Source of the DNA: Mycobacteriales bacterium
GTDB lineage: Bacteria; Actinomycetota; Actinomycetes; JAFAQI01
Assembly (NCBI GenBank): GCA_035504215.1
Contig: DATJSI010000050.1
Span: forward strand, 8,340-72,339
Reading direction: 5' to 3'
Length of the DNA stretch: 64,000 bases
Shown here: in pieces, positions 3,448 through 39,358 of the stretch
Layout: each line of letters starts with the position of its first letter
How positions within the stretch are numbered: position 1 is the first letter of the stretch
Notes under the pieces: generated by a model
The model's database searches: none
Seen by the model: only the letters and a program-made list of their open reading frames with translations
What the model was told of the DNA's origin: nothing
Translations under genes and position numbers: made by a program

Positions 3448-4347
3448 TCAGGCTCCTTCCGTGGCATCGGAGGTGGCCTCGGTGCCGGCCTCGGCAACCG
3501 GCTCCGCAGCCGGCTCGCCGGCAGCGACCGGCGCGGCCTCGACGGCCGGCTCAGGCGCCGCGGCGGGCGCGGGCTCAGCCACCGGGGCGGGCTCGGCAAC
3601 GGCGGCGGCGCGGCCGCCGTTCACGGCGGCACTGGCCGCGGTCGACGGGCGGTCCCGCCGCGGACGGCGGTTGCGCTGGTCACGAGCCCGCAGCGCGGCG
3701 GCAGCGGCCGCCTCCTCGCGGGTCATGACGTCGTCGCCGGTATAGATCCAGACCTTCACACCGATCCGGCCGAAGGTCGTGCGCGCCTCGTAGAAACCGA
3801 AGTCGATGTTGGCGCGCAGCGTGTGCAGCGGAACCCGGCCTTCGCGGTAGAACTCGGAGCGGCTCATCTCCGCGCCACCGAGTCGGCCACCGCACTGGAC
3901 CCGGATGCCCTTCGCGCCACCCTTCATCGCCGACTGCATCGCCTTGCGCATGGCACGGCGGAAGCTGACCCGGCTCGACAGCTGCTCGGCGACCCCCTGC
4001 GCCACGAGCTGGGCGTCGATCTCGGGGTTCTTGACCTCGAGGATGTTGAGGTTGACATGCTTGTTGGTGAGCTTCTCCAGGTCGCCCCGGATCCGGTCGG
4101 CCTCCGCGCCACGACGGCCGATGACGATGCCCGGCCGCGCGGTGTGGATGTCGACGTTGACCCGGTCGCGGGTGCGCTCGATCTCGACCCGGCTGATCCC
4201 GGCACGTTCCATGCCCTTGGTCAGCAGGCGCCGGATCGCGACGTCTTCTTTGACGTAGTCCCGGTACAGCTTGTCGGCGTACCAGCGGCTCTTGTGCCGG
4301 CTGGTGATGCCGAGCCGGAACCCGTTCGGGTTGACCTTCTGACCCAT
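3448..4347 (-). CDS. rpsC: 30S ribosomal protein S3 with ~80-aa Ala/Pro/Glu-rich C-terminal extension
   Basis: 299 aa [26 protein letters not shown].... KH and S3-C domains are followed by the low-complexity tail [26 protein letters not shown]. Confidence 0.92.
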
Positions 4348-5105
4348 CAGCGGGCCTTCCTGCTCGAACCGACCGCGTGCGCGGCCGAGGACTCCGCGGG
4401 CGCGACGACGATCGTGATGTGACTGCTTCGCTTGCGAATCCGGTACGCGCGACCCTGCGCGCGCGGGCGGAACCGCTTGAGGGTGGGGCCTTCGTCGACA
4501 TAAGCCTCGATGATCACGAGGTCTTCCGCGTCGAGGCGCTGGTTGCGGACGTGCGCGAGGTGCGAGGCGTTGGCGACCGCGGAGTCGAGCACCTTTCCGA
4601 CCGGCTCGCTCGCGGCGTGCGTGTCGAACTTCATCATCGCCTGGGCGTCGCGCGCGGGCATGCCCCGGACCAGGTCGACCACACGGCGAACCTTGGGCGG
4701 CGTCATGCGTACGTATCGAGCGGTCGCCCGGCCGAGGATCTCGTCCTCGTCGAACTCCGAGTAGTCGCGGGTGGATGCCGCCGTGCGCGGGGCCGGGGTG
4801 CGCGCGGCCGGGGCCGTGGCCTGCTCGTCGTCACCGGTGTCGGCCTCGGCATCGGCGGCCGGCTCGGCGTCAGCTGCCGGCTCTGCATCGGCGGCCGGCT
4901 CGGTGCTCTTGCGCGCGCGGCTCGCGCGCTTGCGCGGGGCCGGCGTGGACTCCTCGGCGGGCGCCTCATCGGCGGCCGGTTCGCTCGACGCCTCAGTCGC
5001 CTCGGTCGCCTCGGTCGCCTCGACCGTGTCGGTCGACTCGGGCGTCGCGTCGTCGCCCGACGCAGTGGTCTCGTCGGACTCAGCCACGACGCGACCTCCG
5101 TTCAT
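4347..5105 (-). CDS. rplV: 50S ribosomal protein L22 with long acidic N-terminal extension (start ambiguous, ATG 5105 or GTG 5087)
   Basis: The conserved L22 core [20 protein letters not shown]...[20 protein letters not shown] starts near aa 130. Upstream there is an in-frame 120-aa E/A/T/P-rich region with an [20 protein letters not shown] repeat. Either start codon overlaps the rpsS 3' end. Confidence 0.8.
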
Positions 5106-6510: not shown

Positions 6511-7427
6511 TGCGACTCCTCCTCTTCGGTTGCGTCTTCATCGGTTGCGTCCGCCGCCGCGACGGTCTTCTTCGCCGCGGCCTTCTTGGCCGGCGCCTTC
6601 TTCGCCGCGGGCGGCGCATCGTCGTCGGCAGCCGCCTTCTTCGCGGCCGTCTTCTTGGCCGGCGACTTCTTCACGGGAGCCGGCTCGTCGACGACCGCTT
6701 CGGCCGGCTCGGCCTCGGGTGCCGGTGCCTTCTTCGCCGGGGCCTTCTTGGCCGGCTTGGCCACGGGGGTCACCGCAAGCAGGTCGACCGCCTCGCCGGT
6801 CGCCTTGCCACCGGCGACGAAGCTGGCCAGCGCGCCCTCGGTGAAGACGACGTCGTCGCTCACGAGCACGTCGTAGGTGTTGAGCTGGTCGGGCGCGATC
6901 ACGTGGACCGTCTCGACGTTGCGCAGGCTCTTCCAGGTCAGCTCGTCGGTGCGGTCGAGGACGACCAGCACGTGCCGGCTCGAGGCGACGCCGGCAAGCG
7001 CAGCCGCCGCCTGCTTGGTCGACGGGGTGTCACCTTCGACCAGCGAAGACACGACGTGCAGCCGCCCGCCGCGAGCCCGGTCGGACAGCGCCGAGCGCAG
7101 CGCGGCCGCCTTCATCTTCTTCGGAGTGCGCTGGGAGTACGAGCGCGGGGTCGGACCGTGGACGACCCCACCCCCGACGAACTGCGGCGCTCGGGTCGAG
7201 CCCTGCCGGGCGCGGCCGGTGCCCTTCTGCCGGTACGGCTTGCGGCCACCGCCGCGAACCTCGCCGCGGTTCTTGCTGTCGTGGGTGCCCTGCCGGGCCG
7301 CCGCGAGCTGCGCGACGACGACCTGGTGGACGAGCGGGATGTTCACGTCGACGTCGAACAATGCCTCCGGCAGCTCGATCGTCCCGGTGACCTCGCCCTC
7401 CGAGGACTTCACTTCGACGGTGGGCAT
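6507..7427 (-). CDS. rplD: 50S ribosomal protein L4 with ~90-aa Lys/Ala/Pro-rich C-terminal extension
   Basis: 306 aa. The L4 core ([33 protein letters not shown]) is followed by an [16 protein letters not shown]...[12 protein letters not shown] histone-H1-like tail. Confidence 0.9.
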
Positions 7428-8092
7428 CAGCGCGCACCTCCGCGAACGACCGGCGCCTTCGCGGCGCTACGAACGAGAACGAGGGTCCCTGCCGGTCCCG
7501 GGATCGACCCCTTGATCAGGAGCATGCCCTTCTCGGCGTCCACCGAGTGCACGCGCAGGTTGAGCGTCGTCGTGCGCACGGCTCCAAGACGACCGGCCAT
7601 CCGCATGCCCTTGAACACGCGACCGGGTGTGGCGCAGCCACCGATCGACCCCGGCGAGCGGTGCTTGCGCTGCACGCCGTGACCACCGCCGAGTCCGCCG
7701 AAGCCGTGCCGCTTCATGACGCCTGCGAAGCCCTTGCCCTTGCTGGTCGAGATGACGTCGACGAGCGTGCCCGGCTCGAACACCTCGGCCGTGATCTCCT
7801 GGCCGAGCTCGTAGGTCGAGGCATCGGTCGTGCGGAGCTCGGCAAGGTGACGGCGCGGCGGGACACCGGCCCGGCCGAAGTGCCCGGACAGCGGCTTGTT
7901 GACCTTGCGCGGGTCGACCGCACCGAACCCGAGCTGGATCGCGTCGTACCCGTCGGTTGCCGGCGTGCGGACCTGGGTGACCACGCACGGCCCGGCCTTC
8001 ACCACCGTCACGGGTACGAGCCGGTTCGCCTCGTCCCACACCTGGGTCATCCCGAGCTTCTCGCCCAGGATTCCCTTGCGTTCGCGATTCAT
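7427..8092 (-). CDS. rplC: 50S ribosomal protein L3
   Basis: 221 aa with ...[38 protein letters not shown]... Confidence 0.9.
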
Positions 8093-8198
8093 CGTCCAGT
8101 CCTTCGAGGTGCCATTGACTCAGGTGACGGCTGAGCCGCCGCGTGCTGGCGCACGCAAGGCGACGAGAAGGCAGCCAGTCGGCGGGTGGGAGTCGTCA

Positions 8199-8507
8199 TC
8201 AGAGCTTGATCTCGATGTCGACGCCGGCGGGAAGATCCAGCCGCATGAGGGAATCGACGGTCTTCGGGGTCGGGTCGAGGATGTCGATCAGCCGCTTGTG
8301 GGTGCGCATCTCGAAGTGCTCGCGCGAGTCCTTGTACTTGTGCGGCGAGCGGATCACGCAATAGACGTTCTTCTCCGTCGGCAACGGCACCGGGCCCGCG
8401 ACCTGAGCGCCCGTCCGGGTCACCGTCTCGACGATCTTGCGCGCCGACGAGTCGATGATCTCGTGGTCGTAGGCCTTGAGCCTGATGCGGATCTTCTGTC
8501 CCGCCAT
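8199..8507 (-). CDS. rpsJ: 30S ribosomal protein S10 (possible alternative start at 8519)
   Basis: [76 protein letters not shown], highly conserved S10. Confidence 0.9.
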
Positions 8508-8613
8508 CTCGCCCGTCACATTCCTTACTCGTCAGGTGGTGCTGCTGCTCGGTGCCTTACGGGGGGTGGTGCGGCGTCGCGGCGCCCGGTCCCCCGAGCG
8601 CCGCGACGCTGGA

Positions 8614-26252: not shown

Positions 26253-27107
26253 CTACTCCTCGGCGGAGGTGTCCGCGTCGGCCTCGGTGGACTCGGCAGG
26301 CTCGGCGGGCTCGGTGGGCTCGGCGACCTCGCTGTCGGTGCTGGCCTCGGGCTCGGCGACCGCGGCGGCGGGAGCAGGAGCCGAGGGGCCGGCGTCGCCG
26401 TCCGATCCGAGGTCACGCGTGCGGGTCGGGTCGACCAGGATCCCGGGACCCATCGTCGTCGACAGCGCCACCTTGCGGATGTATCGACCCTTGGCCGCAG
26501 AGGGCTTGGCGCGGACGACCTCGTCGAGCGCGGCGGCGTAGTTCTCCACCAGCTGCGACTCGCTGAACGAGGTCTTGCCGATCACGAAGTGCAGGTTGGC
26601 CTGCCGGTCGACGCGGTACTCGATCTTGCCGCCCTTGATGTCGCTGACCGCCTTGCCCACGTCCATCGTGACGGTGCCGGTCTTCGGGTTCGGCATCAGG
26701 CCGCGGGGGCCGAGGACCCGGCCGAGCCGGCCGACCTTGCCCATCAGGTCAGGGGTCGAGACGGCTGCGTCGAAGTCGAGCATGCCGCCGGAGACCTGCT
26801 CGATCAGGTCGTCGCCACCGACGATGTCCGCACCGGCCGCGCGGGCCTCCTCGGCCTTCTCGCCGGTGGCGAAGACCGCGACGCGAGCGGTCTTCCCGGT
26901 GCCGTGCGGCAACGAGACGGTGCCGCGCACCATCTGGTCGGCCTTGCGCGGGTCGACGCCGAGCCGCATGGCCACCTCGACGGTCGCGTCGAAGCGCTTG
27001 GTGGTGGAGGTCTGCTTGGCCAGCCGAACCGCCTCGAGCGGCGTGTAGAGCCGATCGCGGTCAATGAGTGCGGCGGCGGACTTGTAGGACTTGCTGCGCT
27101 TGGTCAT
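26253..27107 (-). CDS. rplA: 50S ribosomal protein L1 with ~50-aa acidic C-terminal extension
   Basis: 284 aa [58 protein letters not shown].... Tail is [29 protein letters not shown]. Confidence 0.93.
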
Positions 27108-27633: not shown

Positions 27634-28875
27634 TCAGATCTTGCTGACCTGGCTGAACGAGAGCTCGACCGGGGTCTCCCGGCCGAAGATGGAGACGAGG
27701 ACCTTCAGCCGCTGGGACTCGGCGTTGATCTCGTTGATGGTGGCGGGCAGCGTCGCGAACGGGCCGTCCATCACGGTGACCGACTCGCCGACCGCGAAGT
27801 CGACGACCTTCGGCACCTCGACCCGCTTCGCCTCGGCCGGCTTCGGGGCAAGGAACTTCACGACGTCCGCGGTCGATAGCGGCGTCGGGTGCGTGGTGCC
27901 CACGAAACCGGTCACACTCGGCGTGTTCTTGACGACCGACCAGGACTCGTCGGTGAGATCCATCCGGACGAGGACGTAGCCCGGGAAGATCTTCGAGTCC
28001 ACGACCTGGCGCTTGCCGCCCTTGATGATCGTCTCGGGCTGGGTCGGCACCTGGATGTCGAAGATGAAGTCCTCCATGTTCAGCGAGGCGATCCGCGACT
28101 CGAGGTTGGCCTTCACCCGGTTCTCATAACCCGCGTAGGTGTGGACGACGTACCAGTCGCCCGGCAAGGTCGCGAGCTTGGCCCGGAAGGCCTCGACCTC
28201 GTCGACCTCGTCGCCGGACTCGCCACCGACCTGCGTGCCGGACTGCGCCGCGGACTCCGCAAGCTCACCGGCCGCCGGCTCGCTGTCCGGCTCGGCCGCT
28301 TCCGCGGACTCCTGCTCGGCCGGCTCGTCGCCGGCAGCCGCGGCAGCCTGGTCGGCGACCGGCTCGGTGGCGGCCGGCGGCTCCGCGTCGCTCGGCTCTG
28401 CGTCGTCCGGTGCGGCGTCCTCCGGTTCCGTGTCGTCCGAAGCGACCGGGGTCGGCTCCGGCTCGGACTCCGTCGAGTCCGCTGCCGGATCAGCCTGGTC
28501 GGCAGCCTGTGACGGCTCTGCCGCATCCGCGTCGTCGGTGGCCGGTTCCTCGGTACGGTTCGCCGCCGCGACGGCCGCTGCCCAGGCGTCCGCGACCGGG
28601 CCGCTCGGAGGCTCCTCGGAGCCCGGGCCGTCAAGGTCCGACTCGGCGTTCGCTGTGTCGCCCGCTGTGTCGCCCGGCGTGTTGTCCGCTGCGTCCTCGG
28701 CCGGGTCGTGCTCGGTGGCGGTCGGGGCCTCTGCCGTCGGCGACTCCGGCGACGGCGCATCCGCCGACGAGGTCGGGAGGTCGGGCTCGACGACGTCACC
28801 GTCGGTCTGCTCGGGCACGTACTCGGTCACGATTGCGGGGTACTTCCTTGAGAGTGGGCGGGGAGGGACGGTCAA
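27634..28875 (-). CDS. nusG: transcription termination/antitermination factor NusG with ~235-aa acidic low-complexity N-terminal extension
   Basis: C-terminal NGN+KOW core ([22 protein letters not shown]...[54 protein letters not shown]). The N-terminal region is D/E/A/P-rich. Start codon is uncertain. Confidence 0.85.
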
Positions 28876-33880: not shown

Positions 33881-34309
33881 TCAGGTGAGCTGGACGATGG
33901 CTCGTGCTTTCGTGAGCACGCTGGCGCCGAGCGCCCTCGCCTCGAGCGCGACGGAGACCTTGCGGTCGTCGAGCTTGGTCTCGACCCAGCCGGAAATCTC
34001 GATGTCGGTGCCCTTGTCGTCGTCGGGCACCGGCACCGGGGCGGTGAACCGCACGCCGTACTCGACGACCGCACCCGGGTCGCCGGCCCAGTCGGTGATC
34101 ACCCGGCCGGCTTCGGCCATGGTGAACATCCCGTGCGCGATGACGTCGGGCAGCCCGACCGCCTTGGCGATGCGCTCGTTCCAGTGGATCACGTTGAAGT
34201 CGCCGGACGCGCCGGCGTACTTCACGAGGTCCGCCCGTTGGACGTTGAAGGTCTGGGCGGGCAGCTTCGTGCCGACCTCGACGTCGTCGTAGGACACCTT
34301 CGCCGCCAT
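33881..34309 (-). CDS. MaoC-like (hotdog fold) dehydratase
   Basis: 142 aa with the ...DFNVIHWNERIAKAVGLPDVIAHGMFTMA... hydratase motif. Possibly HadB-like by synteny with rpmG/tRNA-Trp-secE (inference). Confidence 0.7.
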   Translation of the reverse strand: MAAKVSYDDVEVGTKLPAQTFNVQRADLVKYAGASGDFNVIHWNERIAKAVGLPDVIAHGMFTMAEAGRVITDWAGDPGAVVEYGVRFTAPVPVPDDDKGTDIEISGWVETKLDDRKVSVALEARALGASVLTKARAIVQLT

Positions 34310-34345
34310 GGTCCGGACGCTACCTCAGCCGGTCCGCCGAGCGGC

Positions 34346-36007
34346 TCAGGCCTTGCCGGTGATCTCGGCCGCACACCGCTGCCCGCTGCGCAGGCCGCCT
34401 TCGATGTAGCCCTGGAAGTTCAACGACGTGTGCTCGCCCGCGAAGTGCAGGTTGCCGTGGCGGCGGCCCTGGATCCCGTTGAAGTCGGTGTACTGCCCGA
34501 CCTTCAGGTAGGAGTAGGCGCCCTTGATGTGCGGGTCACCGCTGGACCACACGTAGAACGACTTCCCGTTGTACGCCGACGTCAGCCCGGGATAGATCGC
34601 GTCGAACTGGCTCAGGTAGTCGTGCACCATCTGTGCCGGTGCAGCTCCGCGGTAGTGACGCAAGTCGTAGCGCTGCCCCCAGTCGGTGCCCACCGTGCCG
34701 CCGGGAAGCGCCGCGAGGACCCCCGCCGTACCAGGTTGGTAGCCGGTTGCGTCCCATGCGCCCTGCACGACGCCGGCGCAGTAGACGTTGCCGGTCTTGC
34801 CGGCCTGGTCCCACACCCGGTGCGAGAACTGCAGGAACATCTTCGCGTTGCTGCCGAGCGGCTCGGTATGGATCGCGCGGCGCTGTGGCGCGGGCAGCGC
34901 GATCCCGGTCAGGTCCACGTCGCGCAGCAGGGTGAACGGCAACGCGAGGACGACGTGGTCGGCGGCGACGGAGTGGTGGCGACCGTCGTGGTCGAAGGTC
35001 AGCCGGTATCGGCCGTGAGCGGTTGCGGCGATCGCGACGAGTCGCTCGCGCAGATGCAACGAACCGGCAGGCAACCCGTCGACGATGCCGGTGGTCAGCT
35101 GGTCGCAGCCGCCGTGGATGTGCCACTTCTCGTCCGCGCCGTCGAGCTCCGGCGACGACTTCGGCTGGTTGCCACTCTTCGTGCTGTCGTCCTCGCCGAG
35201 CAGGTACACGAGGTTCAGCGCGGATTGCTCTTCCGGCGGACCGCCGAACTCGTCAAGGACGGCCGAGATGCAGAGCTGCCCGAAGTCGCCACCGATCCCG
35301 CCCGGGACGTAGGCGTCGATCCAGTCGGACACGGACATCCGATCCCACTGGCGTCCCCACTTCGTGCTGCGGGTGTAGGTGGTCGGCCATGGCGCCTTGT
35401 TGATCGCGGCATCGTGGAAGAGCTTCCAGCCCCACTCGTGCCACTCGTGGTTCATCATCTTCTGCGGCCACAGCTTGCCGTCGAACTGCAGGCTGACCTG
35501 GTCCTGGTGCGGCTCCGGGTAGTGGTCGGTGTTGTCGAGAGTGAGGCCGAACCGCTTGGCGAGCGCGAGCGTCGCGGTGTGTTCGGGGTTCACGAACTCG
35601 GCATGCTCCTCGACCAGCTGGCCGTCGTCGAAGTGGCCGCGCAGCGTACGGATGCGGCCGCCGTGCCGGTCGGCGTACTCGTAGATCTGGGAGCGGATGC
35701 CGTGGCGATGCCAGAGCCGGTCCGCGCAGCCGAGCCCGGCGATACCGGCACCCACGATGACGACGGTGGGTTGCTTGCGAGCGTTCCGAGCGCCGGGTCT
35801 GGCAGCGGCGAGCTCACCGCCCGCGATCGGTACGGCGAGCGCTGCCGCGGCGACACCTGCACCCTGAAGCAGGCGCCGGCGGCTGATTCCGGCCGCGACG
35901 ATGTCCGCCGCTTCGTCGATCGGTGCACCCGAGCGCCGGGCAACTCGAGAGGTGAGCTGGGCGGTGCGCAGCGCGTCGCGCGCCGCGCTCGCTCTCATGG
36001 GCCGCAT
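34346..36007 (-). CDS. flavin-containing amine oxidase (L-amino-acid/monoamine oxidase family) with twin-arginine signal
   Basis: 553 aa. Tat motif SRRRLLQGAGVAAAALAVP. FAD dinucleotide fold VVIVGAGIAGLGCADRL. The C-terminal region is typical of amine oxidases. Confidence 0.75.
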   Translation of the reverse strand: MRPMRASAARDALRTAQLTSRVARRSGAPIDEAADIVAAGISRRRLLQGAGVAAAALAVPIAGGELAAARPGARNARKQPTVVIVGAGIAGLGCADRLWHRHGIRSQIYEYADRHGGRIRTLRGHFDDGQLVEEHAEFVNPEHTATLALAKRFGLTLDNTDHYPEPHQDQVSLQFDGKLWPQKMMNHEWHEWGWKLFHDAAINKAPWPTTYTRSTKWGRQWDRMSVSDWIDAYVPGGIGGDFGQLCISAVLDEFGGPPEEQSALNLVYLLGEDDSTKSGNQPKSSPELDGADEKWHIHGGCDQLTTGIVDGLPAGSLHLRERLVAIAATAHGRYRLTFDHDGRHHSVAADHVVLALPFTLLRDVDLTGIALPAPQRRAIHTEPLGSNAKMFLQFSHRVWDQAGKTGNVYCAGVVQGAWDATGYQPGTAGVLAALPGGTVGTDWGQRYDLRHYRGAAPAQMVHDYLSQFDAIYPGLTSAYNGKSFYVWSSGDPHIKGAYSYLKVGQYTDFNGIQGRRHGNLHFAGEHTSLNFQGYIEGGLRSGQRCAAEITGKA

Positions 36008-36044
36008 CCGCGGACCGTACTACCGGATCGACGGCCGGTCGCGG

Positions 36045-36515
36045 TCAGTCTCCCGGCGACGAACTCTCGGCCGCGGTCGCGAGTCGTTCGAGGGTTTGCG
36101 TCATCCCGGCGCGGTTGTGGGAGGCCCGGTCCGCGACGCCGGTCGCCGGCCCGCTCAACAGCTTCAGCAGCGGGTTGCGACGATCGGTCCACGACTCCGT
36201 CACCGCGCAACCGTCGGCAGTCGGCGCGAAGGTGTATCCCCACTCGGCGACGCTCATTCCGCCGACCTTGACGAGGAAGCTGAACGCCTTGCCGGGATCC
36301 GCATCGACGACGGTTGAGACCGACTTCCAGGTCTTCGTGCCGTTGCGATTAGTTCCGCGGAACGACGCGCCGCGGACCGGCCGGTTCGCACCGCGGAGCC
36401 ACTCGATTGCGATGGTCTGCGGCGACCACTCGGGCATCCGGGTGACGTCGGCAACCAGCCCCCACACCAGCTCCGCGGGAGCACGGATCTCCCGGGTGAC
36501 CTCGACATCCGCCAC
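36045..36515 (-). CDS. SRPBCC (START/Bet v1-like, polyketide cyclase/dehydrase-like) family protein
   Basis: 157 aa from the GTG start VADVEVTREIRAPAELVWGLVADVTRMPEWSPQ.... A purine-rich GGGGGAGGGG tract lies just upstream. The long upstream ORF-track extension is rejected. Confidence 0.6.
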   Translation of the reverse strand: MADVEVTREIRAPAELVWGLVADVTRMPEWSPQTIAIEWLRGANRPVRGASFRGTNRNGTKTWKSVSTVVDADPGKAFSFLVKVGGMSVAEWGYTFAPTADGCAVTESWTDRRNPLLKLLSGPATGVADRASHNRAGMTQTLERLATAAESSSPGD

Positions 36516-36535
36516 GACCCCTCCCCCAGATCGGC

Positions 36536-37297
36536 TCAATCGCCCGAGCCTGAAGGTAACGATCCAGGTGCGCACGCGCGTCCCAGCGTTTTGCGCCGGC
36601 AGGCTGCGCCGATCGCGGCGATCACGATCGCGATCAGCGTGACGCCGGCGGCGACGCCGGTGCCGAGCCGGACCTGGTCGCTCGCTGCGTAGATGCTGCG
36701 GCCCCACCAGCGGGTCACCGCGAACGGTCCGGGGACCAGCAGGAACCCGTCGCCGGCCACGGCCAAGACGCACAGGCCGAGCGCAACCCATGGGAGGGGC
36801 CGCCCGCCACGACGCACCCCGAAGGTGGCGAGCCACGTTACGCCGACAGCGAGGCCACAGAACACGAGGAGCACCGACGCGCCCGCGACCGGAACCAAGG
36901 GGGTGTGCAGCGTCGAGCCCACCCTGGTGTTGAGAGGGTTCCAGAAAGCTTGGGTCAGTTGGGCCTGGCGCCACAGGGCGACTGCCATGGTGAGGTTGCC
37001 CGCCGCCCAGATCGCCACGAGTGTGAGCAGCACGCGCCACGCACGCTCGAACTTGGCGGGATCCACCCGCTCCTGCCACCAGGTCCAGTCGGCCGGCGGT
37101 TGGGGCCACTCGGGTCCTGGCATCCAGTCAGGTGGTGGCGACCAGGCTCGCGGCGGCTCGGGCCACCCGGGAGGCGGCGTCCAAACGCGATACGAACCCG
37201 CCGCCACCCGCCCATCATGCCTGGTGGCCACCGGCGTCGGCGGATGAACGAGGGACCGCTGGGCAATCTCCAGGACTACTCGTGCCGTGCCGATCAA
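36536..37297 (-). CDS. hypothetical integral membrane protein with Pro/Trp-rich N-terminal region
   Basis: 253 aa ORF with about 4 hydrophobic helices and N-terminal WTPPPGWPEPPRAWSPPPDW. No family recognised. Start uncertain. Confidence 0.4.
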   Translation of the reverse strand: MIGTARVVLEIAQRSLVHPPTPVATRHDGRVAAGSYRVWTPPPGWPEPPRAWSPPPDWMPGPEWPQPPADWTWWQERVDPAKFERAWRVLLTLVAIWAAGNLTMAVALWRQAQLTQAFWNPLNTRVGSTLHTPLVPVAGASVLLVFCGLAVGVTWLATFGVRRGGRPLPWVALGLCVLAVAGDGFLLVPGPFAVTRWWGRSIYAASDQVRLGTGVAAGVTLIAIVIAAIGAACRRKTLGRACAPGSLPSGSGD

Positions 37298-37302
37298 GAT
37301 GT

Positions 37303-37782
37303 GTGCGGAGGTCCGTGGCGCTGCTCGCGGCCGGCGTCTTCGTGGCGGCGGCGATTGCCGCCGTACTCGGGTTGTGGCTCCCGGCTCGACAGCGAACCCA
37401 GGACGCCGCGTGGACGGCCGCGGGCGAGCGGGCGCTGGCCCGGGTTGCGCTGCCAGCGACGTTCTCGACCGACACCAAGGACGGTCGCAACCAGGTCTGC
37501 GGGACCGGCACCAGCGAGCGCTGCTTCCTCGGCCCCGGCGATCCGCGCGATCAGGTAGCGGCGGTCAAAGCAGGGCTGGCCCACGTCGCCACCGGCCCGA
37601 TCGAAGGAACCTGCGCTGCGGTGCCGGTTGCGGGCGCGCCGCCGTCATGCCATCTGGTCGTGCCGGTCACCGGCAGTCGGCTCGCTGTGGAGATGTTTGC
37701 CCACCTGAACGACCCGGGCCAGCCGATGTCGCAATGGACCTACGACGGGGCCTACGTGGAGATCCACCTCACCGCACGCTAG
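37303..37782 (+). CDS. hypothetical membrane-anchored protein (N-terminal TM helix)
   Basis: GTG start before VRRSVALLAAGVFVAAAIAAVLGLWLPARQ, with GGAGG just upstream. Ends with TAG 2 nt before the repeat array. No family recognised. Confidence 0.35.
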   Translation: MRRSVALLAAGVFVAAAIAAVLGLWLPARQRTQDAAWTAAGERALARVALPATFSTDTKDGRNQVCGTGTSERCFLGPGDPRDQVAAVKAGLAHVATGPIEGTCAAVPVAGAPPSCHLVVPVTGSRLAVEMFAHLNDPGQPMSQWTYDGAYVEIHLTAR

Positions 37783-37783
37783 G

Positions 37784-38200
37784 GGACTGCTGCCACTCAG
37801 CGAACGAAACTCGCTGAGGTGCGCGCCTGCAAGGCCGCACTGAGCGCCGCGTGCTGTAGCACGCAAGCGAGCGAGAACGCCGCAGGCATTGCACCCCACT
37901 CAGCGAACGAAACCCGCTGAGGCGTGCGCCTGCAAGGCCGCACTGAGCACCGCGTGCTGTAGCACGCAAGCGAGGGAGAACGCCGCAGGCGTGCGCCTGC
38001 AAGGCCGCACCGAGCGCCGCGTGCTGTAGCACGCAAGCGAGGGAGAAAGCCGCCAAGGTTGCACCCCACTCAGCGTTCGAAACTCGCTGAGGCGTGCGCC
38101 TGCAAGGCCGCACTGAGCGCCGCGTGCTGTAGCACGCAAGCGAGGGAGAACGCAGCAGGCGTGCGCCTCAGCGAGTTTCGCGGCTCAGCGAGTTTCGCGG
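37784..38200. repeat. complex tandem-repeat array: ~4.1 copies of a 68-bp unit interleaved with 3 copies of a 26-bp hairpin unit, ending in two 17-bp direct repeats
   Basis: 68-bp units at ~37819-37886, 37922-37989, 37990-38058 and 38092-38159 (GCGTGCGCCTGCAAGGCCGCACTGAGCGCCGCGTGCTGTAGCACGCAAGCGAGGGAGAACGCCGCAGG). Hairpin units CCACTCAGCGAACGAAACTCGCTGAG at 37793-37818, 37896-37921 and 38066-38091. Tail CTCAGCGAGTTTCGCGG occurs twice. No unique spacers. Confidence 0.85.
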
Positions 38201-38349
38201 TGTTCTGTGTGGCGGCGACAGTTAGGGCAGAACTTCTTCAGCTCGAGCCGGTCGGGGTCGTTGCGCCGGTTCTTCTTGGTGATGTAGTTCCGGTGCTTAC
38301 ACTCCGCGCAGGCCAGCGTGATCTTGGGTCGGACGTCGGTGGCTGCCAC
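38185..38349 (-). CDS. rpmG: 50S ribosomal protein L33 (below ORF-track cutoff)
   Basis: Hand translation [54 protein letters not shown] (54 aa, GTG start, AGGAAGG RBS 8 nt upstream). The last codons and stop lie inside the repeat-array tail. Confidence 0.85.
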
Positions 38350-38440
38350 GGTGCTGACCTTCCTGATGGGCCGGATCTGGGGCGGGACTCCGCCTGCCGG
38401 AAAGCCAGGATAGCCCGGCTGGCGCGGGACGGGCGGTGCG

Positions 38441-38514
38441 TAGCGGAGGCCGGATTTGAACCGGCGACACAGCGATTATGAGCCGCTTGCTCTGCCTGGC
38501 TGAGCTACTCCGCC
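38441..38514 (-). tRNA. tRNA-Met (anticodon CAT)
   Basis: Reverse complement GGCGGAGTAGCTCAGCCAGGCAGAGCAAGCGGCTCATAATCGCTGTGTCGCCGGTTCAAATCCGGCCTCCGCTA. Located upstream of rpmG, as in other actinobacteria. Confidence 0.85.
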
Positions 38515-38578
38515 GCAGGTCCACGACCTGGACCGGCGTTCCATGGTGCCACAGCGGCAACGGCCATACGATCCGGGG

Positions 38579-39358
38579 ATGACGGCGCTCGGCACCGACC
38601 AGGAGGTCGCGAACCGGGTGCTGGCGGACCTCGATCGGGACGGTTACTCGGTCGTCGAGTCGCTGCTGCGCCCGGACCGGGCCGCGGCGATCCGCGACGG
38701 CCTGCGCGGGATCCTCGACGCCACACCCACCGGGCGCAACGACTTCGAGGGTTTCCAGACCCGGCGGATCTACGCGATCTTCGCCAAGACCCGGGTCTTC
38801 GACGACCTCGCCGTACACCCGCTGCTCCTGACGGTGCTCGACGCGATGCTCGGCCCGAGCTACCAGCTGAGCGCGCCGACGGGAATCGAGATCGCACCGG
38901 GCGAGAAGGCGCAGTTCCTGCATACCGACGACGGGATCTATCCGTTGCCCCGGCCGCATCCGGAGGTCGTGCTCAACACGATGTGGGCGCTCGACGACTT
39001 CACCGTGGACAACGGCGCCACCCGCGTCGTGCCCGGCAGCCACCGCTGGACCGACCGGATGCCGGTCGACCCCGACGAGACGGTGACCATCACAATGCCG
39101 GCCGGATCGGTGCTGTTCATCCGCGGCACGCTCTGGCACGGCGGCGGCGCCAACCGCACCGACCGCACCCGGCTCGGGGTCCTGCTGGAGTACGCCGCGG
39201 GCTGGCTGCGCCAGCAGGAGAACCACGTCCTCGCCGTACCGCCGGAGATCGTCCGCACCCTGGAGCCCAGGTTGCAGGAACTGCTCGGCTACGGCATCCA
39301 CCCGCCGTTCGTCGGGTACGTCGACGGCCGCCACCCTCGACGGGTCCTCGGCCAGTAG
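38579..39358 (+). CDS. phytanoyl-CoA dioxygenase (PhyH) family Fe(II)/2-oxoglutarate-dependent oxygenase
   Basis: Start at MTALGTDQEV. Contains HTDDGIYP (His-x-Asp) and the downstream LWHGGGANRTDRTR motif, typical of PhyH family proteins. Confidence 0.7.
   Translation: MTALGTDQEVANRVLADLDRDGYSVVESLLRPDRAAAIRDGLRGILDATPTGRNDFEGFQTRRIYAIFAKTRVFDDLAVHPLLLTVLDAMLGPSYQLSAPTGIEIAPGEKAQFLHTDDGIYPLPRPHPEVVLNTMWALDDFTVDNGATRVVPGSHRWTDRMPVDPDETVTITMPAGSVLFIRGTLWHGGGANRTDRTRLGVLLEYAAGWLRQQENHVLAVPPEIVRTLEPRLQELLGYGIHPPFVGYVDGRHPRRVLGQ

Follow-up and report, generated by a model that had tools for sequence, protein, structure and literature searches.

A tandem hairpin array behind rpmG is a member of a conserved family dispersed in soil Actinomycetes and a candidate transcript 3'-end element

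The sequence analysed here is a 64,000-nucleotide (nt) stretch of a Mycobacteriales contig (DATJSI010000050.1), which we call the window and which is part of a metagenome contig assembled from short reads with MEGAHIT. At window positions 37796-38200 it holds an array in which sequence inspection found four near-identical units, three short hairpins and a 17-nt duplication. As an earlier description made from the letters alone (the sequence-only reading) had said, the array sits between convergent genes: a plus-strand gene ends at 37782, and rpmG lies on the minus strand. The plus-strand gene stops with TAG at 37780-37782, 13 nt before the array, and its transcription would enter the array from the side opposite to rpmG. 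On the rpmG side the array closes a string of minus-strand genes consisting of a tRNA-Met and rpmG. The features of the locus are as follows, with units in plus-strand numbering; bit scores refer to R1, a covariance model that we built from 91 units of the family described below, the window's four included.

37315..37782, plus strand: convergent gene of 155 amino acids with no Pfam family (called gene, list of open reading frames (ORFs))
37796..37818, no strand assigned: short hairpin 1, CTCAGCGA-acgaaac-TCGCTGAG (sequence, motif search)
37805..37891, minus strand: unit 1, last in the rpmG direction, with apical domain 37820-37891 and 3' basal arm 37805-37830 (R1 78.1 bits; inverted repeats I1 and I4)
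37908..37994, minus strand: unit 2, with apical domain 37923-37994 and 3' basal arm 37908-37933 (R1 83.1 bits; inverted repeat I3)
37995..38058, minus strand: unit 3, apical domain (R1 68.2 bits; period 67 in Tandem Repeats Finder; alignment)
38078..38180, minus strand: unit 4, first after rpmG, a complete ~103-nt hairpin with 5' arm 38155-38180, apical domain and 3' arm 38078-38103 (inverted repeat I2; R1 match 38093-38164, 84.9 bits, E 1.4e-21)
38167..38200, minus strand: 17-nt duplication, two direct copies of CCGCGAAACTCGCTGAG (Tandem Repeats Finder period 17, 95%; direct repeat family D2)
38167-38183, minus strand: duplication copy 2, the outer part of the first unit's 5' basal arm
38184-38200, minus strand: duplication copy 1, the rpmG tail with its stop codon
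38185..38349, minus strand: rpmG, ribosomal protein L33, 54 amino acids (ORF list; Pfam Ribosomal_L33; codon alignment with relatives)
38440..38514, minus strand: tRNA-Met, directly upstream of rpmG on the same strand (ARAGORN; Rfam tRNA match)
8118..8183, minus strand: decayed copy of the element (R1 25.1 bits, E 1.6e-4, the best match outside the array)

Tandem Repeats Finder detected a period of 103 at 37793-37990 (94% matches, score 361), of 67 at 37920-38053 (95% matches), of 170 at 37823-38168 (93% matches, score 606) and of 17 at 38163-38200 (2.2 copies, 95% matches). The 16-nt palindrome GCGTGCTGTAGCACGC occurs exactly four times, at 37849, 37952, 38019 and 38122, whereas shuffles of the window lead one to expect 0.12 occurrences with up to two mismatches allowed; GCGCCTGCAAGGCCGCAC likewise occurs four times against a shuffle expectation of 0.28 at up to three mismatches. 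The four near-identical units with an internal palindrome noted by the sequence-only reading are therefore real. That reading had, however, taken 68-bp units and 26-bp hairpins for two interleaved elements, and both turn out to be parts of a single hairpin of ~103 nt. The flanks of the units are inverted repeats, and CGAAACTCGCTGAGGCG is found on both strands (three matches on the plus strand and two on the minus strand), so each supposed 26-bp hairpin is the 3' basal arm of one unit followed by the 5' basal arm of the next. There are indeed three such junction hairpins, at 37796-37818, 37899-37921 and 38069-38091, but each is 23 nt long and only the first is perfect, with an 8-bp stem and a 7-nt loop; one substitution in each of the other two leaves a 7-bp stem. 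Short hairpin 1 is composed of two pieces: from 37805 rightwards it consists of the outer end of unit 1's 3' basal arm, and to the left, at 37796-37803, lies one more inverted copy of the arm box CTCAGCGA; the hairpins at 37899-37921 and 38069-38091 are its equivalents.

The repeating entity is thus one ~103-nt hairpin, made up of an arm, an apical domain of ~60 nt and a second arm, in four head-to-tail copies. In the window the basal arms are CGAAACTCGCTGAGGCGCACGCCTGC and its complement. Around the first unit after rpmG, a repeat finder paired 38078-38103 with 38155-38180, arms of 26 nt that are 92% complementary and enclose one unit. Units 2 and 3 abut directly, spaced 67 nt apart, with no outer arms between them, and the 5' arm of unit 3 (about 38059-38081) has diverged. 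Because the units abut, at 67 or 103 nt, and the sequence between their cores consists of repeated arms, there are no unique spacers, and a CRISPR array could be rejected, as had been done before. The R1 scan placed all four units on one strand, and the other arrays of the family behave likewise. The ORFs that cross the array are spurious, again as previously judged. For the array as a whole, the folding energy is about -240 kcal/mol on either strand (minus strand -240.6, z -4.9; the two z scores are -4.9 and -6.8), which agrees with the extensive folding anticipated at the 3' ends of both convergent genes. Because these genes flank the array, it would also fold in the opposing transcript. According to the inverted repeats and the minimum-energy fold, the 3' arm of unit 1 can pair with the 5' arm at 38155-38180 or with the copy of the arm in the rpmG tail, clamping the whole array.

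The array touches rpmG through its duplication. The two direct copies of CTCAGCGAGTTTCGCGG (plus-strand reading) that had been reported at the array tail are identical, at 38167-38183 and 38184-38200, and rpmG ends within the latter, with CAC CGC GAA ACT CGC and TGA (H R E T R stop). The TGA, at 38185-38187, ends 33 nt before the GTTCTC of the first unit and lies inside copy 1 of the arm duplication; a motif search found the rpmG tail sequence five times within the array. The array tail had been said to supply the end of rpmG, and the HRETR codons and the stop do lie there, but in a codon alignment this C-terminus is common to relatives without the array. HRETR is therefore the native C-terminus of RpmG and not a run of foreign codons, with the hairpin arm being what complements the gene end. 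We also considered replacement of the rpmG tail by element-borne sequence, which is unsupported: the synonymous positions at which rpmG departs from its relatives gather towards both gene ends and not only at the tail.

A local minisatellite confined to this site, or a single unit multiplied by the assembly, is scarcely credible as an explanation of the array. The assembly does come from short reads, and a contig from a second sample (L139; L numbers are our locus handles) breaks inside the array. However, this contig is identical over the first two units, which it reproduces exactly, before it ends. A collapsed or inflated repeat is also unlikely because the four units differ at several positions and are joined at both 103-nt and 67-nt spacing. 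Since L139 stops within the array, the copy number of four rests on one assembly. Above all, as shown next, the unit recurs in ~80 other loci.

A 21-nt core pattern, scanned over one genome per species, recovered nine genuine loci in Actinomycetota; the other nine matches were due to chance, in unrelated sequence. The genomic carriers are metagenome-assembled genomes (MAGs) of Frankiales/Frankiaceae, a Mycobacteriales MAG and the cultured Pseudonocardia eucalypti JCM 18303; one MAG carries the element on four contigs, and none of the genome carriers found is labelled Mycobacterium. A looser pattern, in which the apical hairpin was left free, was used for metagenomes, including soil metagenomes, and yielded 109 stretches. 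After duplicates and chance matches had been discarded, genomes and metagenomes together gave 94 non-redundant units in 79 arrays, so the suggestion to check for a dispersed family was borne out. These loci place the array in a conserved family that is dispersed among soil Actinomycetes. The window units were part of the R1 training set, and their cores also match units that the pattern search recovered independently. Once R1 had been used to find neighbouring units, 52 loci had one unit, 20 had two and eight had three; the window array, with four, is the largest seen, the others having 1-3 units.

Pattern searches of the window found no further copy beyond the array. The next best R1 match in the 64 kb after the four units, at 25.1 bits, is the decayed copy at 8118-8183, which lies ~15 nt after the TGA of an ORF at 8199-8519 (minus strand) and 25 nt before the ATG of an ORF at 7427-8092. 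It retains the 5' half and the apical hairpin, and its 3' half is gone. The local density in the window is thus one array and one relic per 64 kb. Separately, clusters of short-period (9-27 nt) tandem repeats occur at window positions 3461-3648, 4783-5041, 6563-6755, 26279-26331 and 28193-28785 and probably represent low-complexity coding sequence.

Searches of Rfam 15, with the window region and 15 other loci at E values up to 1 and the P. eucalypti element at E values up to 10, returned only tRNAs, one unrelated L31 leader and chance matches to plant miRNA precursors. The element sequence appears in no paper of the open-access full text, although an earlier description elsewhere is possible, and a keyword search of the open-access literature for terminator repeats or elements of the repetitive extragenic palindromic (REP) or miniature inverted-repeat transposable element (MITE) kind in actinobacteria gave nothing relevant.

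The base pairing of the family covaries strongly. Read in the direction of the gene, the apical domain is GCUGGC GGC GUUCUC NN UCGCUU GCGNNN-loop-NNNCGC GGCGCUC NN UGCGGCC UU GCCAGC. In the alignment of 91 units, a nested hairpin model gives 86.7% paired cells compared to 73.4% in shuffles, and a covariation score of 0.283 compared to 0.095 in shuffled alignments (none of 500 shuffles reached it) and ~0.045 when the pairing partners were slid. In the apical hairpin, one pair alternates between U:A and G:C (48 and 39 units) and the next between G:C and C:G (65 and 21), the main variants being GCGUGC/GCACGC (42 units), GCGGGC/GCCCGC (19) and GCGGCC/GGCCGC (19). The 2-bp helix likewise occurs as GG:CC (39 units), CC:GG (15) and GC:GC (7). 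The flanks are just 36% identical between loci, yet matched flanks form duplexes of -39.1 kcal/mol, compared to -23.4 for flanks taken from different loci (p = 1e-40). About 30 positions are invariant in the 91 units, and many of them are unpaired in the model. In addition, we observed a sub-family that is one nucleotide shorter on either side of the 2-bp helix and in which a U-to-C change turns the invariant U.G pair into C:G (L103:2930-3001, L091:3132-3203, L094:4089-4160 and 4296-4367, L038:462-533 and L053:1001-1072). All its members are additional units, upstream or downstream of the unit found by pattern in their array.

The family has a fixed relationship to genes. We define the sense strand as the one that reads GTTCTC...TGCGGCC. 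On this strand, 40 arrays have only a co-oriented stop codon within 60 nt upstream, seven have only a convergent stop within 60 nt downstream, and eight have both; the bias of 40 versus seven is unlikely to be due to chance (binomial p = 1e-6). Between the end of the stop codon and the core lie 13-38 nt, with 16 and 27-31 nt preferred. These two classes differ by about one helical turn, and at 16 nt the stop codon is provided by the TGA within a GCTGAG box of the 5' arm that is semi-conserved. When stems were defined by a base-pair probability of at least 0.8, the 5' arm had a median length of 39 nt, 39 of 46 stop codons lay inside the stem, and the stem extended a median of 15.5 nt into the coding sequence. 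Among ordinary genes of the window, the stop codon is paired in this way in only two of 56, and internal controls fold at least as well as the 3' ends of these genes. In the window, the sense strand of the array and rpmG share the minus strand. Because the family is oriented with its upstream gene, the window element is best read on the minus strand, in the rpmG transcript.

The upstream genes, ten of which were confirmed with Pfam and several of which turn up again in other organisms, include dnaB (four loci), rpsI (four), the proteasome ATPase gene mpa (three), carD (three), rpmG (three, plus L121), and whiB, rpmE, a sigma-70 factor gene and uvrB (two each), as well as rpsD, secY, secG, secA, clpX, map, prs, pstB and rpmB. 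Orthologous loci with proteins of 73-99% identity agree at 77-93% in the core and at 50-80% in the arms. One of the two rpmE genes with an element, in L044, is preceded by the L31-Actinobacteria ribosomal leader RF03158 (1475-1527, minus strand, 39.5 bits), so the rpmE mRNA there combines a known structured 5' leader with the element at its 3' end.

The rpmG locus itself varies between lineages. The element follows rpmG in four lineages, that of the window included, with one unit in L065 and L165-167, two in L082/L121 and four in the window; in all these loci the TGA lies in the GCTGAG box of the 5' arm. It is absent after rpmG in Streptosporangiales, one Mycobacteriales MAG, one Pseudonocardiales MAG and several metagenome lineages, among them one whose RpmG is identical to that of the window. 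The copy-number comparison that had been proposed is thus positive between lineages (0, 1, 2 or 4 units at rpmG); for the same organism, a single further contig was found, the one that ends inside the array. In the window, four genes, encoding the 155-residue protein, a 195-residue protein, a Polyketide_cyc2 protein and an amine oxidase, separate rpmG from a MaoC/HadA-like gene (34309-38185), and a PhyH gene lies between the tRNA-Met and a tRNA-Thr (38543-39358). Relatives with identical RpmG are without those four genes, the PhyH gene or the array, and have a 94-nt spacer between rpmG and the MaoC gene.

This comparison could suggest that insertion of the four extra genes left the array behind as a scar or an attachment site, with duplicated target sequence accounting for the repeats of the rpmG 3' end, and the five occurrences of the rpmG tail would fit with that. 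We nevertheless find such an origin extremely improbable, because the element follows rpmG in three other lineages with different downstream genes and stands behind dozens of unrelated genes elsewhere, neither the rpmG tail nor the element recurs where the extra genes end on the other side, near 34309-34346, and no integrase occurs among the called genes. What lies in the rpmG-hadA interval changes with each of the lineages examined: an adenylate cyclase gene, a short-chain dehydrogenase gene or nothing. In the Streptosporangiales genomes L145-L152 the rpmG-hadA spacer ranges from 122 to 552 nt despite identical RpmG, with no R1 match, and in L149 (1850-2139) it contains unrelated 16-19 nt tandem repeats. 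A plain hairpin follows rpmG in the array-less relatives L002 (541-592) and L010 (420-471); its R1 alignment is weak and not significant (10.1 bits, E 0.32). It aligns as if the apical hairpin had been deleted (GGCGAC-GUUC-GCUC...CGCUGCG) and may be a remnant of the element, a reading that rests on that non-significant match.

The presence and absence of the element at rpmG, with 0, 1, 2 or 4 units, together with its dispersal behind many unrelated genes, also raises the question of whether it is selfish palindromic DNA of the REP or MITE kind, without host function, that spreads to gene ends because it does no harm there, grows in tandem and then decays, its arms being kept complementary by DNA-level template switching inside the palindrome (quasi-palindrome correction) instead of by selection acting on an RNA. 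Tandem multiplication is indeed common, as the counts above indicate, decayed copies exist (8118-8183, and the distal units of some arrays, which have low R1 scores), and the end of the coding sequence is copied in the 3' arm, which is what a templated process would yield. Even so, we regard this explanation as unlikely. The same genes carry the element where their proteins are 73-99% identical, and there the core is kept while the arms drift. Template switching offers no explanation for the ~30 unpaired positions that are invariant in 91 units, and the strict orientation and the fixed geometry around the enclosed stop codon also speak against selfish DNA. Furthermore, blastn found no array match on 72,556 plasmids or 50,697 phage records, and a pattern scan found none in 2.9 million viral contigs. 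No second array was seen in the few-kb flanks of the ~80 arrays, and no transposase-like neighbour was present among the genes called around the rpmG loci.

On balance we lean towards the view that the element is a structured signal for the 3' end of the rpmG transcript, so far undescribed, which acts as a terminator or an exonuclease barrier and has an apical domain that is probably bound by a factor. A cis-acting RNA role fits the orientation, the enclosure of the stop codon, the stable stem, the highly expressed housekeeping genes and operon ends at which the element is found, and its conservation at orthologous sites. To our knowledge, the carrier Actinomycetes are without terminators of the hairpin-plus-U type. 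The basal arms, which are largely specific to their gene, begin in the upstream coding sequence, enclose the stop codon and carry the conserved apical domain. In the model we propose, the element in the window would form the 3' end of the tRNA-Met/rpmG transcript on the minus strand. The hairpin, being very stable, would halt RNA polymerase or, with greater probability, act as a block to 3'-to-5' trimming once factor-dependent termination has taken place, so that housekeeping mRNAs would have a defined and protected end that retains the stop codon. The invariant unpaired apical residues would be the probable binding site of a trans-acting factor, and tandem copies could arise through slippage or unequal recombination between the repeated arms. 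It is these invariant unpaired residues that suggest a bound factor, and the same was proposed by the authors of the Tuberculosis Rho-independent terminator motif (TRIT), who envisaged a factor binding its conserved double-stranded sequence (PMC3152330). The 3'-end stem-loops of actinobacteria have long stems and usually no U-tract (PMC13613805), and a further study reports that mycobacterial RNA polymerase requires a U-tract at intrinsic terminators (PMC3993855); because of these two reports we favour the role of a barrier over autonomous termination.

Several points weigh against a 3'-end signal. We infer from position and structure alone what the function most likely is, and this holds for the sense RNA as the active form, for termination or stabilisation, and for the binding of a factor to the apical domain. 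The reported U-tract requirement makes autonomous termination doubtful, and no U-tract follows the stems of the family: the T fraction is 0.20-0.21 compared to a background of 0.15, and only four of 88 family tails are U-rich (at least 4 T in 8 nt). Nor was any canonical terminator-like site found in window 37000-39000. In M. tuberculosis, predicted TRITs overlap just 2-4% of mapped termination sites (bioRxiv 10.1101/2022.06.01.494293). For the apical domain, the nested hairpin and a three-hairpin junction, which RNAalifold prefers, both fit, and the residues that would decide between them do not vary. Lastly, the wobble pairs would favour folding of the other strand: the sense-strand helices hold 127 C.A/A.C cells compared to 27 G.U cells, and the antisense strand folds better in 80 of 93 flank duplexes and in 76 of 93 whole elements.

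This asymmetry raises the alternative that the active strand is antisense to the upstream gene, with the hairpin forming in RNA from polymerases that come into the gene end from downstream, and that the element insulates highly expressed genes from antisense transcription or makes up half of a bidirectional stop. The C.A excess falls mainly on one pair of the 2-bp helix and on a tandem CA/CA that recurs below helix S2 (alignment A2 columns 23/55 and 1-2/74-75). At the former, pair 23:55 is C.A in 16 units, which would be U.G on the antisense strand, while U.G on the sense strand occurs in three; at the latter, the antisense strand would have tandem UG/GU wobbles. The rpmG tail in the window also uses A-ending codons (ACA GAA ... 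GAA ACT, where relatives have ACC GAG ... GAG ACC), and the antisense RNA would therefore be U-rich just after the hairpin. In M. tuberculosis, long 3' untranslated regions are reported to yield antisense transcripts at convergent gene pairs (PMC3384566). Against this, a convergent gene end lies within 60 nt in only 15 of the 79 arrays, and downstream neighbours are co-oriented starts in 34 cases compared to convergent stops in 23. Neither the alignments nor a scan revealed a conserved promoter-like sequence downstream of the element, and the stem is not generally preceded by an A-rich tract (A fraction 0.18-0.21). The outermost arms show the wobble asymmetry only weakly (56 versus 37), and antisense folding is contradicted by the invariant U.G beside the apical hairpin, which is C:G in the sub-family and would become an A.C mismatch on the other strand. 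The signals from wobble pairs conflict and do not settle the strand of folding, and the C.A excess is unexplained; an antisense or bidirectional role is a rival that we consider improbable.

Going further than a 3'-end signal, we tentatively hypothesize that the conserved apical domain serves for recognition in a dedicated system of 3'-end formation, either through a trans-acting protein or as a self-processing fold, that is distinct from both intrinsic and classical Rho-dependent termination and that is coupled to the terminating ribosome by the enclosure of the stop codon; we consider this less likely than not but give it an appreciable chance. If true, it would be a sequence-specific mode of termination or processing for the housekeeping transcripts of a clade of Actinomycetes. 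How high-GC actinobacteria end their transcripts is an open question, as canonical terminators are rare there, hairpins without a U-tract do not terminate the actinobacterial polymerase in vitro, and the sole conserved motif so far, TRIT, is confined to Mycobacterium. The family offers a concrete, mutable sequence for direct tests of termination, 3'-end protection and factor binding. Its advantages for such work are ~30 invariant positions, covariation, fixed orientation, a stop codon in the stem, highly expressed housekeeping genes and a cultured carrier, P. eucalypti JCM 18303. Annotators gain a marker of gene ends in actinomycete metagenomes and an explanation for a class of spurious ORFs and contig breaks, and the variable copy number means that element loci may serve for strain typing.

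The sequence-only reading had likened the array to a minisatellite or to a mycobacterial interspersed repetitive unit (MIRU) or REP element. The behaviour is similar, but the unit recurs in ~80 other loci and the array lacks those defining features of REPs and MIRUs that we tested. Like the REPs of enterobacteria and pseudomonads and the bacterial interspersed mosaic elements (BIMEs) that they form, the family consists of dispersed extragenic palindromic repeats at gene ends that are often clustered. REPs are short imperfect palindromes of 20-40 nt, and they stabilise upstream mRNA against 3' exonucleases. In PMC2817692, they are described as having more than 100 copies per genome and alternating orientation within BIMEs and as being tied to RAYT transposases. 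The array shows neither the short palindromes nor the alternating orientation; the element has ~103-nt units, head to tail and in a single orientation, with largely locus-specific arms and an enclosed stop codon.

MIRUs share with the element their short tandem units between actinobacterial genes, oriented with the flanking genes and touching stop or start codons, and their variable copy number. They insert at start codons and contain an internal ORF that is translationally coupled at -4 spacing (PMC12548453). In contrast, the element is defined by a covarying hairpin and not by an ORF: because translation in the rpmG direction stops at the TGA of rpmG, situated in the first arm, the units are not traversed by an ORF on that strand, and the neighbour on the far side of the array from rpmG is a convergent gene.

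Closest in position is TRIT, described by Gardner et al. 2011 at about -8 from stop codons (PMC3152330) and associated with well-defined mRNA 3' ends (PMC3384566). Both are conserved multi-copy hairpins at gene termini of high-GC actinobacteria that overlap the end of the coding sequence, as the 15.5-nt median reach of our stems illustrates; the likeness is one of position only. TRIT is palindromic, mostly bidirectional and restricted to Mycobacterium (PMC3152330), and it is by this description alone that we set the element apart from it. Unlike TRIT, the element has an asymmetric apical domain of ~60 nt and a fixed orientation, and it is found in Frankiales, Mycobacteriales, Pseudonocardia and soil metagenomes.

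A canonical intrinsic terminator would have a G+C-rich hairpin followed by a U-tract, and the latter is missing here. The generic 'I-shaped' stem-loops of actinobacteria resemble the element, with a long G+C-rich stem, no U-tract and a position directly after the gene (PMC13613805). These ordinary stem-loops share no sequence, whereas the element has ~30 invariant apical positions and encloses the stop codon, as only two of the 56 other window genes do. The window array itself has the conserved apical domain, the complementary basal arms and the co-orientation with rpmG, its stop codon in the 5' arm, that characterise the family. Although it belongs to no Rfam 15 family, the element fits a known kind: conserved, dispersed hairpins at the ends of genes.

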